From contig CAWIBO010000005.1 of the NCBI GenBank assembly GCA_963834385.1, positions 512,001-576,000 on the forward strand: 64,000 nucleotides of DNA, given 5' to 3'. Made by a program: the position numbers. Position 1 is the stretch's first letter. Every line of letters begins with the position of its first letter. Shown piece after piece: positions 36,221 to 39,200 of this stretch. This DNA is from an uncultured Verrucomicrobiae bacterium. Lineage in GTDB: Bacteria; Verrucomicrobiota; Verrucomicrobiia; Chthoniobacterales; UBA10450.

Positions 36221-39200
36221 TGACGGACGCCGACGTGGACGGCTCGCACATCCGCACGCTTGCTGCTGACCTTCTTCTACCGGCAGATGACCGAGCTGGT
36301 GAAGCGCGGGCAAGATCTACATCGCCCAGCCGCCGCTCTACCAGATCAAGCGCAAGAAGCGCGAGGAGTACGTCGATGACGACGCGCAGCTGAACCGCAT
36401 CCTGATCTCGCTCGGCGCCGAGGATGTGCGCCTGAAAAACCTGGCGGACGGCAAGGAATTGAGCGCCGCCCAGTTGAAGGACGTGCTCGAGTCATTGGAG
36501 AAACTGTCGAAGCTGAGCGAATCGGTCCGCCGGCACGGGGGCGATTTCGAGAATTTCCTCAGCGCCCGCGACGCCAAGACCGGGAAGCTGCCGACCTACC
36601 TGGTGAAGGTGCGGGAGGGCAACGACGAGAGCGTCCATTATTTCCACGACGAACGCGAGATTCGGACGTTCCACGAGGCCAACCTCGACCTGAACCTGCT
36701 CGACACGGAGATCGAGCAGGATCTTCTGCCGCTGACCGCGGCTCCCGCCTCCAAGCCGGTGGCGCAGCGGCGCCGGGCGAAGAAGGTGGAGCTGCACGAG
36801 GCGACCACCATCCAGAAGCTGATCACCGAGCTGGCCCGGCGCGGGCTGAAGGTCGATCATTATTCCGCGAGCGATAAGCCGATCTTCGAGTTGATCGAGG
36901 GCGAAGGCGAGAAAGCGACGGTGCATCCCCTGTTCTCCATCCCGGAGATCCACCAGAAGATCGTCGAGATCGGCCGGCGCGGCGTGCAGATCAAGCGGTT
37001 CAAAGGCCTGGGTGAAATGAACGCCAAGGAGCTGTTCAACACCACGATGGACCCGAACAAGCGCAAGCTCCTGAAGGTCGACCTGACCGAGGACAACGCC
37101 GTGGAAGCCGACCAGATGTTCACCCGCCTGATGGGCGACGTGGTCGAACCCCGCCGCCAGTACATTGAGGATAACGCGCTCAATGTCCGCAACCTGGATG
37201 TTTAGGGAATGACGAAGGACGAATGGCTAATGACGAAGGAATGCCGAAACACGAGCGCCGCGATTCGCGGGAGGTCGAGTTTTGGGAGGGCGATTCCGGT
37301 GTCGTCCGGGAAGAGCCGACGCCTCCGGGCAAATACGATCTGGAAGAGCGAACGGCTCGGTTTGGGGAAGCTGTGATCGATTTCGCCCAAACCATTCCGC
37401 AAAGTCCGGTCACCAATCGCCTGATCAATCAGTTGGTCGGCTGTGGCGACGAGTATCGGCGCGAACTACTGCGAAGCCGACGACGCCGTCTCCCGCAAGG
37501 AATTCTTTCTGCGCATCGGGACCTGTAAGAAAGAGGCCCGGGAAACGAAACATTTCCTGCGCATGATCGTCCGCGCTGTGCCTGATTTGAAGCCCATCGC
37601 CCGGGATCTCTGGCGGGAAGCGCGCGAGCTCCACCTGATTTTCGCCAAAATCCACCGCAGCAAAAGCTAGTCATTCATTTCAGCCATTCCTTCGTCATTC
37701 GACATCCGTCATTAGTCATTACCCACCGTGTATAACCCGAACGAAAAAATAGAACCGATCAACGTCGCGGAAGAGATCTCGAGGTCGTTCCTCGATTACT
37801 CGATGTCCGTCATCATCTCGCGCGCCCTGCCCGATGCGCGCGACGGCCTGAAACCGTCCCAGCGCCGCATCCTTTACGCGATGAACGATCTGTCGCTCTA
37901 CCCGAACCGGCAGCACCGGAAATGCGCCAAGATCTGCGGCGACACCAGCGGTAACTATCATCCCCACGGCGAAGCGGTCATCTACCCCACCCTCGTCCAC
38001 ATGGCCCAGCCGTGGGCCATGCGCGAAAGGCTCGTGGACGGCCAGGGCAACTTCGGGTCGGTCGAAGGCGATCCCCCCGCGGCCATGCGTTACACCGAGG
38101 CGCGCATGACGCATCTCGGCGCCGCGCTCATGACCGACATGGACAAGGACACGGTCGATTTCGTCCCGAACTACGACGAGACCCGGACGGAACCGACCGT
38201 TTTCCCGGCCGCTTTCCCGAACCTCCTCGTCAATGGCGGCACCGGCATCGCCGTCGGCATGGCGACCAACATCCCGCCCCACAACCTGGGCGAAGTCATC
38301 GACGGCATCTGCGCGCAGATCGATGACCCGGACATCGACCTCGAAGGCTTGATGAAGTTCGTCAAGGGACCCGATTTTCCCACGGGCTGCGCCCTGCTCG
38401 GCCTCGCCGGCATCCGGCAATATCTCGAGACGGGCCGCGGCAGCATGAAGGTGCGCGGCAAAGCCGGCGTGGAGGAGCTGAAGGGGAACCGGGAGCAGAT
38501 CGTCATCACCGAGATCCCTTACAACGTCAACCGGGCCACCCTGGTCGAGCGCATCGCCGAACTCGTCAATGACAAGGTGCTGACCGACATCAGCGCGATC
38601 CGCGACGAATCGGACGAGAACACGCGCGTGGTCATCGAGTTGAAGCGCGACGGCAATCCCAAGGTCGTCATCAACAATCTTTACAAGCACACCGCGATGG
38701 AAAGTTCCTTCGCGGCCTCGATGCTGGCGATCGACCACGGCCGGCCGAAGCTTCTTTCGCTCAAGGAGGCCAACACCGCCTACATCGAGCATCGGCGCGA
38801 GGTCGTCCTCCGCCGGACCCGCTACGAGCTGCGCAAGGCCGAGGACCGGGCCGAAACCCTCGAGGGTTATCTCATCGCGCTGGCCAACCTCGATGAATTC
38901 ATCCGGATCATCCGCGGCTCCGCCAACCGCGACGAGGCCCGGGTCAAGCTGCTGGCCTTCGAGTTCACCCGGAAACAGGTGGAGAAGATCGGCATCCTCA
39001 TCCGCAACGAGGCGCGCCTGATCGACGGTCGCTACGCCTTCAGCGAACACCAGGCCAACCAGATCCTTGATCTTCGCCTTTACCAGCTGACCGGCCTCGA
39101 GAGCGAGAAGATTGCCGGTGAATACAAGGACCTGATCGAGCTGATCAAGGACCTGCGCGACATCCTGGCGAAGGAGTCGCGCGTTTTCGACATCGTGAAG

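Follow-up and report, generated by a model that had tools for sequence, protein, structure and literature searches.

The 522-bp spacer between gyrB and gyrA in the window (the whole 64-kb stretch of DNA analysed here) is filled by one insertion of about 519 bp. This 'hairpin cassette' consists of an S23p/PF05635 gene within inverted arms built of AATGACG-type units. On balance we favour reading it as a hairpin cassette of mobile DNA, in one class with the intervening sequences (IVS) of 23S rRNA that encode S23p; its arms would be cognate to its protein, and it would be co-transcribed with the operon in which it resides. A mobile element at the level of DNA is argued for because the arms show no wobble bias, their primary sequence, and not just their complementarity, is retained along with the protein subfamily, copies lacking an ORF are scattered, and congeneric genomes have filled and empty sites. 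The openly accessible literature yielded no paper on such cassettes outside rRNA as a class, and the hairpin-cassette family, though widespread, is apparently undescribed.

The gyrB-gyrA junction

All elements of the junction lie on the plus strand. The 3' piece of gyrB (36426..37205; PF00986, 90.7 bits) ends in the stop codon TAG at 37203-37205, the G of which is the first base of the 5' arm (37205..37243). This arm is a 39-nt inverted repeat composed of the 7-nt units AATGACG, AAGGACG, AATGGCT, AATGACG and AAGGAATG, and the first in-frame ATG of the cassette gene, at 37223, sits within it. The four-helix-bundle ORF is present in two parts. Its N-terminal part (37223..37441) was taken from the ORF list and aligned with the intact 153-aa orthologous ORF of genome G003; it matched positions 1-40 of the A2 profile (described below) with 61 bits. 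The C-terminal part, 75 aa and a stop codon (37443..37670), scored 132.6 bits with the A2 profile and 33.7 bits with TIGR02436 (cut-off 24), while its 20.6 bits with PF05635 lie below the cut-off of 33.8 because it is only a fragment. At the frame break between the two parts (37441..37442) the sequence has one base more than the G003 ortholog (alignment column ~240). Since gyrB and gyrA are likewise frame-broken several times, the break near 37441 is probably an assembly indel, and a later break within gyrA is probably a further one. The 3' arm (37685..37723), made of CGTCATT-type units complementary to the 5' arm, ends 4 nt before the GTG start codon of gyrA (37728..40124; PF00521, 496.6 bits, and PF03989).

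The arm pair 37205-37243/37685-37723 is complementary at 85% of its 39 nt. Its gapped alignment score of 49 was reached by none of 1500 random 330-nt segments of the same genome, which excludes a chance origin of the arms. Minimum free energy and centroid RNA folds both paired the 5' arm with the 3' arm, at a fold energy of -208.3 kcal/mol (z = -2.26; 3 of 100 shuffles were equally stable). Neither a sigma-70-like promoter nor an intrinsic-terminator-like site was detected in 36900-38000, and an Rfam search with E values up to 1 returned two chance-level matches only. The first-pass annotation had reported a 522-bp spacer with a PF05635-family gene bracketed by inverted AATGACG/CGTCATT arrays, next to a gyrB split by frameshifts, and had likened the build to that of ORF-bearing 23S IVS. 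All of this was borne out, as the gene lies in the loop of a terminal inverted repeat with heptamers before the ORF.

The four-helix-bundle protein

The intact ortholog at locus L023 scored 36.0 bits with PF05635 (cut-off 33.8). An AlphaFold model of the gyr-slot subfamily, with L023 as the first sequence, had a pLDDT of 97.3 and four helices. Foldseek aligned this model to 2RLD (TM 0.83) and 2GSC (TM 0.85), and the sequence match of the subfamily to 2RLD had an E value of 1.8e-8. Judged by these profile and sequence matches, the gene product belongs to the PF05635/TIGR02436 four-helix-bundle family ('23S rRNA IVS protein', S23p), and its predicted fold is an up-down four-helix bundle as in 2RLD and 2GSC. 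Purifying selection on the protein is strong: dN/dS had a median of 0.086 over 86 pairs. Synonymous sites were saturated (median pS 0.81, all pairs); the AATGAC-type arms nonetheless retained their motif. To our knowledge, the four-helix-bundle fold is not known to move DNA.

Avd, the accessory protein of diversity-generating retroelements (DGR), belongs to the same fold family; the model gave TM 0.64-0.66 to 4DWL and 8UB7, and one paralog in this genome scored 22.6 bits with PF22296 (bAvd), below the cut-off of 40. However, among solved structures 2RLD and 2GSC, which are not DGR proteins, come nearest (TM 0.83-0.85), ahead of Avd, and the cassette is flanked by gyrB and gyrA with no adjacent reverse transcriptase or template/variable repeat. 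A DGR identity was rejected because there is no reverse transcriptase.

Association of arm type with protein subfamily

Relatives of the gyr-slot subfamily were sought with a profile from a two-sequence alignment (A2). This gave 78 loci, with proteins 65-100% identical, in Verrucomicrobiota, Planctomycetota and other phyla. Upstream of the gene at least two AATG[AT]C units and downstream at least two G[AT]CATT units were present in 68 of the 78 loci, whereas units in the wrong orientation, counted as a control, gave 1 and 7. Four of the 78 loci had AAATACCC arms. The genes downstream fell into 36 different clusters among the 63 loci where that gene could be read. GTGAC[GC] units accompanied a second subfamily in 10/10 loci (at least three slots), and GTTGA[GT]AG units a third in 6/6 loci (at least two slots). 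As far as can be read from these flanking repeats, arm type is cognate to the protein subfamily across phyla and junctions. No relative of the gyr-slot subfamily was found among IMG/VR viral contigs, and a search of plasmids yielded three distant (32%) Nostoc matches and nothing more.

The order of variant units was mirrored between the two arms of a cassette, with a median score of 52 for true partners vs 31 for swapped partners, though only 27 of the 78 true pairs exceeded the 95th percentile of swapped ones. Conserved RNA helices tolerate G·U mismatches and not A·C. In the arms of 73 loci the two were about equally frequent (105 G·U vs 100 A·C; binomial p = 0.78), that is, there was no RNA wobble bias.

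The cassettes occupy operon spacers, in the interval from a stop codon to the start codon that follows, and share the strand of their neighbours. Among the 73 subfamily loci the upstream gene was on the same strand in 64/71 and the downstream gene in 58/67, in agreement with the co-orientation noted in the first-pass annotation. In about 45 of 64 loci the upstream stop codon fell between -7 and +10 nt relative to the arm, in 34 of 58 the downstream start codon was at most 20 nt away, and in 56 of 72 the 5' arm included the first in-frame ATG. AATGACG units, read off the sequence, offer ATG and TGA in all three frames.

Filled and empty sites in relatives

The cassette is a DNA element present or absent at orthologous gene junctions. 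In 29 relatives the gyrB-gyrA spacer measured -8 to 49 nt in six, 97-129 nt in six, 467-514 nt in five, and 782-911 nt in ten, with single spacers of 1146 nt and of 1236 nt; the variation in length had been noted before, with figures close to ours. Six of these slots were empty, two held ORF-less AATGACG hairpins, one a CAGGATT hairpin, four GxxExxY cassettes with a 9-nt period (CAGGATTNA), and one an orthologous four-helix-bundle cassette; the other 15 had other contents, a sulfotransferase gene being one of them. A FastTree gyr tree shows these spacer states to be scattered, and gains were not counted from it. Inheritance at fixed slots appears to be largely vertical.

G012 was compared with its congener G042 at three sites: a four-helix-bundle cassette (filling a gap of 675 nt, vs 62 nt in G042), a hairpin (182 vs 48 nt) and the hairpin of the gyr slot (137 vs 59 nt). 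The alignments of filled and empty sites had sharp ends at stop codons and no recognisable target-site duplication at 72-86% identity. Because the two states have diverged this far, both junctions of an insertion could not be fixed. No transposase or recombinase was seen in the cassette.

ORF-less hairpins

Hairpins of about 100-130 nt that lack an ORF and keep the unit order of the cassette arms were found in G030, G053 and G012, and one in the genome studied here. The contigs of G053 stop at repeats. One ORF-less hairpin sits between convergent genes, in the place of other hairpins. Within a genome the hairpin copies are just 72-80% alike, so there is no sign of recent movement. The hairpin at L029 corresponds to the cassette at L039 minus about 376 internal nt, with the first ~8 and last ~5 codons remaining; this alignment shows that it arose from a cassette by loss of the interior and is not a cassette precursor. 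When the AATGACG hairpins in the gyr slot of L020 and L022 were compared with the L023 cassette, the arms alone aligned and the interiors had no homology.

The abundance of ORF-less hairpins tracks the presence of the cognate gene. In 61 genomes of the family, which are related and hence not independent, the 17 that carry the gene had a median of 37 AATGACG tandem matches, and the 44 that lack it a median of 3.5 (Mann-Whitney U test, p = 2e-6). The difference persisted after removal of 10 matches per gene copy (p = 0.005) and had the same direction in 6 of 7 within-genus contrasts. A second pair, CAGGATTNA arrays and the GxxExxY gene, behaved likewise (median 28 vs 2.5, p = 2e-4), and cross-type tests were null (p = 0.19 and 0.97). 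There were exceptions: G060, G022 and G008 had 29-34 AATGACG matches and no close gene, and in the second pair 10 of 54 genomes without the gene had at least 14 matches. The association can also be read in the reverse direction, a cassette existing only where its hairpins exist.

Other cassettes and arrays in the genome

Arms were scored by gapped alignment; pairing of TRF arrays and an ungapped inverted-repeat scan missed degenerate arms, the latter picking up just 4 of the 9 PF05635 loci (in 5 rows). Nine such loci had been claimed, and nine were found. Six exceeded the 99th percentile of the random-segment control, and the other three, moxR|DUF58 (score 21), a split copy (20) and preA|mmsA (17), had no significant arms. 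In other respects our results departed from the first-pass annotation. It had listed two GxxExxY/PDDEXK_3 genes, neither with flanks that stood out; we found three PF13366 loci, one of them degraded, and two of the three had significant arms (scores 36 and 45). Its statement that each copy has its own heptamer is wrong as it stands, because array types recur across the whole genome: 242 period-7 arrays of at least three copies draw on a common vocabulary.

A second cassette in the window lies between moxR and a DUF58 gene on the plus strand (46198..46679; PF05635, 93.6 bits). It is composed of GTGATCA-type units (46198-46227), a 146-aa PF05635 ORF (46228-46668) and GATCACC-type units (46653-46679), and the DUF58 gene starts directly after it, at 46680. 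Its arm score was equalled or exceeded by 13% of the controls. Seven intact PF05635 copies of this genome are 21-35% identical in an alignment. The paralog at C2:1006156 shares 63% identity with the gyr-slot proteins yet has CTCCAAG-type flanks. The genome further holds seven solo AATGACG arrays and 68 CAGGATTNA matches in 31 clusters, the latter without a close cognate GxxExxY gene. A toxin-antitoxin pair in the window has composite arrays on its flanks.

Relation to known systems

A close likeness is to the ORF-bearing 23S IVS of Coxiella and Leptospira, which also carry an S23p/PF05635 gene in the loop. The helix-45 IVS of Coxiella burnetii is described with a 28-bp stem cut mid-stem by RNase III and with two to three GACAGAT heptamers upstream of S23p (PMC4990558); the gyr cassette has 39 nt at 85%. 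Shared features, as far as that source goes, are tandem heptamers just before the ORF with copy numbers differing between strains, a total length of about 430-520 nt and the look of selfish insertions. The gyr cassette differs in lying between two protein genes and not in rRNA helix 25 or 45. RNase III excision was shown for the Coxiella IVS (PMC4990558), whereas for the gyr cassette it is plausible by analogy. The Coxiella cargo is described as decaying and probably untranslated (PMC4990558), in contrast to the conserved gyr-slot cargo (dN/dS 0.09). Dispersed ORF-less copies and a cognate relation of gene and arm, both found here, do not appear in the accessible text of that paper. The single 23S rRNA gene of our genome (C2:69583-72443) measures 2861 nt, against 2925 positions of the model, and so has no insertion, which rules out an rRNA IVS here.

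REPIN-RAYT systems similarly combine a gene flanked by its own inverted repeats with ORF-less pairs of inverted repeats that are scattered through intergenic DNA and form hairpins (PMC3116915, PMC3337134, PMC5581495). Type-specific co-occurrence of gene and repeat across genomes, several systems per genome and apparently largely vertical inheritance at fixed slots are further likenesses to these descriptions. The RAYT protein is, however, described there as an HUH/Y1 tyrosine transposase of the IS200/IS605 kind, unlike the 110-aa four-helix bundle (PF05635) or PD-(D/E)XK protein (PF13366) found here. Where REPINs are described as built on a single REP palindrome, our hairpins are arrays of 7-9-nt units whose copies are 72-80% alike, without a dominant master sequence. 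We know of no mobilising activity for the four-helix-bundle or PD-(D/E)XK cassette proteins.

With MITEs the cassettes share terminal inverted repeats, short ORF-less derivatives that outnumber the ORF-bearing copies, and the origin of one such derivative by internal deletion. They differ from MITEs and their parent elements in having arms that are tandem arrays and not unique terminal repeats; no transposase lies in the cassette, and no target-site duplication is discernible at the identity of the sites compared.

Tandem heptamer repeats in intergenic DNA also include the STRR repeats of cyanobacteria. The TAACTGA repeats of Beggiatoaceae, Cyanobacteria and Bacteroidetes are direct repeats for which a role in regulation was proposed, with one inverted set reported in the accessible text (PMC4679880). 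They resemble ours in being abundant intergenic tandems of 7-nt units with a small vocabulary, often ending just before a start codon, and in a patchy distribution that suggests horizontal spread (PMC4679880). Ours, in contrast, form inverted pairs around a cognate gene or ORF-less hairpins, and the terms 'intervening' and 'IVS' are absent from the part of that paper at hand (PMC4679880).

Alternative explanations

The first-pass annotation saw the cassette as an intervening sequence of mRNA: the arms form an RNA stem, RNase III excises the cassette from the gyrB-gyrA transcript, and it is this processing that is selected. We regard this as unlikely, even though several observations suit it. 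The build equals that of the Coxiella IVS as described, with its stem formed by terminal inverted repeats, heptamers ahead of an S23p gene in the loop, and mid-stem RNase III cuts (PMC4990558). Both folds pair the arms (-208.3 kcal/mol, z = -2.26), cargo and host genes share their orientation (64/71, 58/67), the arms abut stop and start codons and mirror each other in unit order, and the spacer has no promoter-like or terminator-like site. The mismatches, however, show no wobble bias (G·U 105 vs A·C 100, 73 loci), and the arm motif stays with the subfamily despite saturated synonymous sites, which pairing alone does not demand. Dispersed ORF-less hairpins, one of them between convergent genes, and the lack of an insertion in the genome's own 23S rRNA (2861 nt) also speak against it. 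It might instead be the hairpins themselves that are mobile or recombinogenic, moved by an enzyme that is unlinked or belongs to the host, or by homologous array exchange, with four-helix-bundle and GxxExxY genes as loop cargo spread by arm-to-arm recombination. Two unrelated cargo families in like shells, the many arrays without a cognate gene (31 CAGGATTNA clusters and seven solo AATGACG arrays in this genome), the arrays bordering the toxin-antitoxin pair and AATGACG hairpins whose central loops are unrelated to ORF ends all point this way. We nevertheless think it improbable, given a cargo dN/dS of 0.086, an arm type that stays with its cargo over at least 36 junctions and several phyla, type-specific co-occurrence with null cross-controls, and a hairpin (L029) that derives from a cassette by deletion and is not its precursor. 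Hardly credible is a host regulatory element, in which the arrays control translation or transcription of the operon and the small gene regulates gyrase expression. The arrays do stand directly before start codons (at most 20 nt in 34/58 loci), their units offer ATG and TGA in all frames, and translational regulation by intergenic heptamers was suggested by MacGregor 2015 (PMC4679880). But 6 of 29 relatives have nothing at the essential gyrB-gyrA junction and others have unrelated contents there, one cassette subfamily precedes at least 36 unrelated genes, and array abundance follows the cargo gene and not the host operon.

The favoured reading remains the mobile DNA hairpin cassette. Such a cassette would have no promoter of its own and would be read through from gyrB, with the start codon of its gene within the 5' arm. 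Its protein may be a sequence-specific partner of its own arms, bound as duplex or hairpin nucleic acid, and might act in spreading or maintaining the elements, as RAYT does for REPINs; the ORF-less hairpins would then be non-autonomous derivatives. In the gyrB-gyrA transcript the arms should form a stem of about 39 bp, an expected target of RNase III as in 23S IVS, which on this reading are the same elements residing in rRNA genes. Cutting by RNase III would then be incidental, or would serve to limit damage, and would not be the cause of the likeness between the arms. RNA processing would be at most a consequence and not the defining function. As for the role of the proteins, unrelated four-helix-bundle and PD-(D/E)XK cargo in like shells fits a passenger at least as well as an enzyme. 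It is a tentative idea, possible though not probable, that the Avd-like S23p proteins, and likewise the GxxExxY PD-(D/E)XK proteins, are sequence-specific trans-acting partners of short-period repeat hairpins, each subfamily recognising its own 7-9-nt unit, and propagate or maintain genome-wide hairpin populations as a REPIN-RAYT-like intragenomic replicator. This would explain together how ORF-bearing rRNA IVS arose, where the dispersed STRR/TAACTGA-type heptamers found in several phyla come from and what two large multi-copy 'hypothetical' families do.

Implications

New here are the cognate relation of gene and arm (68/78, 10/10 and 6/6 loci), dispersed hairpins that track the gene, filled and empty sites in congeners, and the lack of a wobble bias. 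In practical terms, the cassettes shift the spacing of operons where essential genes lie, interrupt short-read assemblies at their repeats and are easily mis-annotated. The pairing of gene and array hints that DNA may be mobilised in a new way, with no known transposase. If the reading is true, PF05635 and PF13366, both large multi-copy families, would gain a testable ligand in their own flanking repeat unit, and the heptamer repeats abundant in Verrucomicrobiota, Cyanobacteria, Bacteroidota and sulfur bacteria would have a source. The rRNA intervening sequences would then belong, as its representatives in rRNA, to a hairpin-cassette class that is much larger and colonises the junctions of housekeeping operons across phyla.

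The gyrB-gyrA cassette

The window spans C5:512001-576000 of the genome under study, G000. The spacer between gyrB, whose TAG stop codon occupies window positions 37203-37205 at the 3' end of the gene, and gyrA, which starts with GTG at 37728, is 522 nt long and contains a gene for a four-helix-bundle protein split over two frames. The N-terminal part begins with an ATG at 37223. The C-terminal part (37443-37670) scored 33.7 bits with TIGR02436 (cut-off 24) and 20.6 bits with PF05635, falling under the cut-off of the latter model because the piece is a fragment. Alignment with the orthologous cassette of a related genome, G003, showed that the frame break is due to one extra base near 37441. 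Several frame changes were also present in gyrB and one in gyrA (34463-40344). Since both gyrase genes are essential, the assembly clearly has indel errors: the gyrase frame changes point to uncorrected errors in this five-contig assembly, and the same probably holds for the break in the small gene. Pseudogene calls in this genome (G000) therefore need caution.

The gene is bracketed by two inverted arms of 39 nt (37205-37243 and 37685-37723), which are 85% complementary and composed of 7-nt units of the AATGACG type. With gaps allowed the arm score was 49, and 1500 random 330-nt segments of the genome all stayed below it (median 17, 99th percentile 26). The arms close the spacer in its predicted RNA fold (minimum free energy -208.3 kcal/mol, z = -2.26; 3 of 100 shuffled sequences folded as well). 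The cassette is real and was rightly described in the first-pass annotation.

Arms and protein subfamily across phyla

A search profile built from two proteins (an intact ortholog from a relative, L023, and a paralog at C2:1006156) yielded 581 relatives in species-representative genomes. The best 80 of these (65-100% identity) came from Verrucomicrobiota, Planctomycetota and single MAGs labelled as other groups (Nitrospirota, Dormibacterota, Stahlbacteria, Yanofskybacteria, Bdellovibrionales and others); two lacked a flank, leaving 78. At 68 of these 78 loci, two or more AATG[AT]C units precede the gene and two or more G[AT]CATT units follow it, while the counts for units in the wrong orientation were 1 and 7. 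Variant units (e.g. AAGCTCG, AAATACCC) were mirrored at the matching place in the opposite arm. True arm partners had a median score of 52 and swapped partners one of 31 (95th percentile 60); because partners share the motif, few true pairs exceeded the 95th (27/78) or 99th (13/78) percentile of swapped pairs. Of 3160 pairs, 86 had 0.1 < dS < 1.5, and their median dN/dS was 0.086. The median pS of the full set was 0.81, that is, synonymous sites are saturated, so the arm motif has been kept where neutral sites are randomised. The fold model of the protein (pLDDT 97.3) has four helices and is closest to 2RLD and 2GSC (TM 0.83-0.85), the Avd protein of DGRs being more distant (TM 0.64-0.66).

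Genomic context was analysed for 73 loci, those whose arms scored 36 or more. Where a flank was available, the neighbouring gene lay on the same strand in 64/71 cases upstream and 58/67 downstream. The upstream stop codon was located -7 to +10 nt from the arm in about 45 of the 64, and in about 10 of those it was the TGA of the first arm unit; the downstream start codon was at most 20 nt away in 34/58. The 63 readable downstream genes formed 36 clusters. In 56 of 72 loci the 5' arm contained the cargo gene's first in-frame ATG. In a perfect AATGACG array the start/stop overlap ATGA recurs every 21 nt in each of the three frames, and 5' arms contain a Shine-Dalgarno-like variant unit, AAGGA.

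Occupants of the gyr slot in relatives

In the family (soil Chthoniobacterales), 55 of 61 genomes had a gyrA match, and the 29 best loci outside G000 were read. Six had a short spacer of -8 to 49 nt (L025, L016, L021, L028, L024, L018). Three carried an ORF-less hairpin of 97-100 nt, built from AATGACG/CGTCATT in L020 and L022 and from CAGGATT/AATCCTG in L029, and three another repeat of 118-129 nt (L031, L026, L033). A GxxExxY gene (PF13366, 119-121 bits) occupied four loci (L039, L027, L040 and L017, the last from the unpublished genome G007); these genes stand between arrays of 9-nt period (CAGGATTNA), and a close copy adjoins gyrA in 7 of the 61 genomes. L023 contained an intact 153-aa ortholog of the G000 gene between AATGACG arrays, and L012 a 410-aa membrane ORF. 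Eleven of the 29 relatives possessed an Stf0-type sulfotransferase gene (PF09037, 128.7 bits in L038; 259-269 aa) on the strand of gyrB and gyrA: ten with spacers of 782-911 nt (L038, L030, L015, L019, L014, L013, L036, L032, L034, L037), and L035, in which it accompanies a GxxExxY remnant. The Stf0-type gene has no heptamer arms in this slot. The slot states were scattered on a rough gyr tree, and sister genomes differed.

Relative to the L039 cassette of the congeneric genome G033, L029 (genome G055) lacks approximately 376 internal nt. It retains the arms, the first eight or so codons and the last five or so, and is therefore a deletion derivative. AATGACG hairpins aligned with the AATGACG cassette in the arms alone.

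Filled and empty sites were compared at orthologous junctions of the congeners G012 and G042 (72-86% DNA identity). A four-helix-bundle cassette in G012 corresponds to a gap of 675 nt versus 62 nt in G042, a hairpin to 182 versus 48 nt, and an additional ORF-less AATGACG hairpin at the gyr slot to 137 versus 59 nt; a hairpin between convergent genes gave 155 nt versus 82 nt in G042, which has other small hairpins there. Element ends adjoin stop codons, and at the 182-nt site of G012 the upstream gene takes its C-terminal tail and its stop codon from the first arm units. No target duplication was recognisable at these junctions at this level of identity. One AATGACG hairpin (L152, G012:C1:248410-248532) coincides exactly with a synteny break relative to G042, where its flanks lie on C5 and C1, which hints that such hairpins can act as rearrangement points.

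Dispersed hairpins and their association with the gene

Many AATGACG matches in G030, G053 and G012 were plus/minus pairs 60-125 nt apart. The 18 pairs retrieved were imperfect palindromes of about 130 nt with variable centres, whose unit order (AATGACG, AAGCACG, AATGACG, AATGACG, AAGG...) is that of the Chthoniobacterales cassette arms. One G030 hairpin had more than 25 matching places in G053 (72-80% identity).

Matches to AATGACGAATGACG with at most one mismatch were counted in the 61 genomes (reversed-pattern control 0-2). Genomes with a close gene of the AATGACG-type subfamily (at least 120 bits; n = 17) had a median of 37, those without (n = 44) one of 3.5 (Mann-Whitney U, p = 2e-6). The contrast persisted after subtraction of 10 matches per gene copy (p = 0.005) and after removal of three unpublished genomes (p = 4e-6), and 6 of 7 within-genus contrasts agreed, genus g6 being the exception. 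Matches to CAGGATTNACNGGATT had a median of 28 in the 7 genomes with a gyr-slot GxxExxY gene versus 2.5 in the other 54 (p = 2e-4). All these p-values make the association look stronger than it is, because related genomes are not independent. Cross-type tests over the 61 genomes were null (p = 0.19 and 0.97), and the two array types were weakly correlated across genomes (rho = 0.18). Frame-broken gene copies were found in G053 (60 matches) and G025 (20 matches). G060, G022 and G008 have 29-34 AATGACG matches without a close gene copy, and ten genomes without the GxxExxY gene have at least 14 CAGGATTNACNGGATT matches, among them G000 with 68 in 31 clusters.

Other subfamilies were taken from 20 of the 24 top rows of a family-wide PF05635 search, leaving aside G000, the unpublished G007 and one contig-end locus. 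One has GTGAC[GC] units in 10/10 loci (at least three slots) and another GTTGA[GT]AG units in 6/6 (at least two slots), and the metK-ahcY copy has TTTAAG units in its ortholog as in G000. Unit type thus goes with protein subfamily. In a fourth group of three loci the arms were weak or absent.

Cassettes and heptamer arrays in G000

The nine PF05635 loci counted in the first-pass annotation, from which we take neighbour-gene names other than gyrB and gyrA, were recovered. The seven intact copies are mutually only 21-35% identical, and a same-strand ORF follows all nine. Six of the nine exceed the 99th percentile of the arm-score control; moxR-DUF58 (21), a split copy (20) and preA-mmsA (17) lack significant arms. 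The second cassette of the window (46198-46679), between moxR and the DUF58 gene, has GTGATCA-type units and its stop codon inside the 3' array, with an arm score that 13% of control segments reach. L094, a member of the AATGACG subfamily in another genome, also occupies a moxR-DUF58 junction. There are three PF13366 loci, one of them degraded; significant arms, scoring 36 and 45, flank two of them, which is at odds with the earlier statement that the flanks of these copies do not stand out.

Nor is the heptamer private to each copy, as had been proposed. Tandem Repeats Finder gave 242 merged period-7 arrays (at least three copies) of 73 shared canonical types, including GTGAAT[CG] (51 arrays), GATAACC (14), GATCACC (13), CCAATAA (12) and AATGACG (9). 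The arrays have 47% G+C (genome 63.6%). Of the nine AATGACG places, seven are solo arrays; the other two are the gyr cassette and an ORF-less hairpin (C3:251629-251757). Density per 100 kb is 0.4 on C1 (225 kb), 4.6 on C2, 4.5 on C3 and 19 on C5, with arrays crowded around C5:584-615 kb and 754-812 kb. C1 may be a separate replicon or may not belong to the bin. Also abundant are other inverted repeat families, without relation to heptamers, whose many copies are clustered (consensus starts include CGGTAGGGCGAGACTC... and CGGGTAGGGTGGGCGTCC...; examples at C2:1151261-1153479, C2:784373-789020 and C3:504529-507721).

The degraded PF13366 gene (C3:254595-255064) lies between CCAGGAA[AG]-type arms and forms with these arrays a candidate for a further gene-array pair. 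Such units build many ORF-less hairpins (e.g. C2:307449-307838, C2:970685-970897, C3:379577-380006). Heptamer arrays bracket other small modules too, since a PemK/MazF-like toxin gene (PF02452, 34.1 bits) and a Phd/YefM-like antitoxin gene (26.6 bits, below cut-off), at window 20228-20629 and 20557-20799 on the minus strand, lie between two copies (20005-20060 and 20890-20960) of a composite array of GTGATCA-type units followed by CACGATT units. These copies are direct, not inverted.

RNA or DNA element

An RNA helix under selection should tolerate G·U but not A·C pairs. On the sense strand of the 73 loci the arms formed 2824 Watson-Crick, 105 G·U-type and 100 A·C-type pairs and 280 other mismatches, with no bias towards G·U (binomial p = 0.78; sign count 30 loci versus 20). 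There is thus no sign that the likeness of the arms is maintained through RNA pairing, and homogenisation or recognition acting on the DNA is the better fit. Once transcribed, the stem would likely be cut by RNase III, by analogy with the Coxiella IVS described in PMC4990558. Excision from mRNA would then be a corollary of the cassette reading. The S23p-bearing intervening sequences of 23S rRNA have the same build, but the cassette lacks their defining location, and the single 23S rRNA gene of G000 has no insertion. REPIN-RAYT systems are similar in that the gene stands between copies of its own repeat, hairpin doublets are dispersed, gene and repeat co-occur by type, and one genome holds several systems; they differ in that their transposase is missing from the cassette.

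Heptamer direct repeats have been described, in the relevant part of PMC4679880, without a link to these genes, and this class of cassettes was not found described in the literature searched. New here are the specificity of arms for subfamilies across phyla and the gene-array co-occurrence with cross-type controls, as are the comparison of filled with empty sites, a deletion derivative, a single slot with several occupants and a wobble test with a negative outcome. The preferred reading of the feature is that of a mobile DNA hairpin cassette encoding a protein which is probably the specific partner of the arms around its gene.
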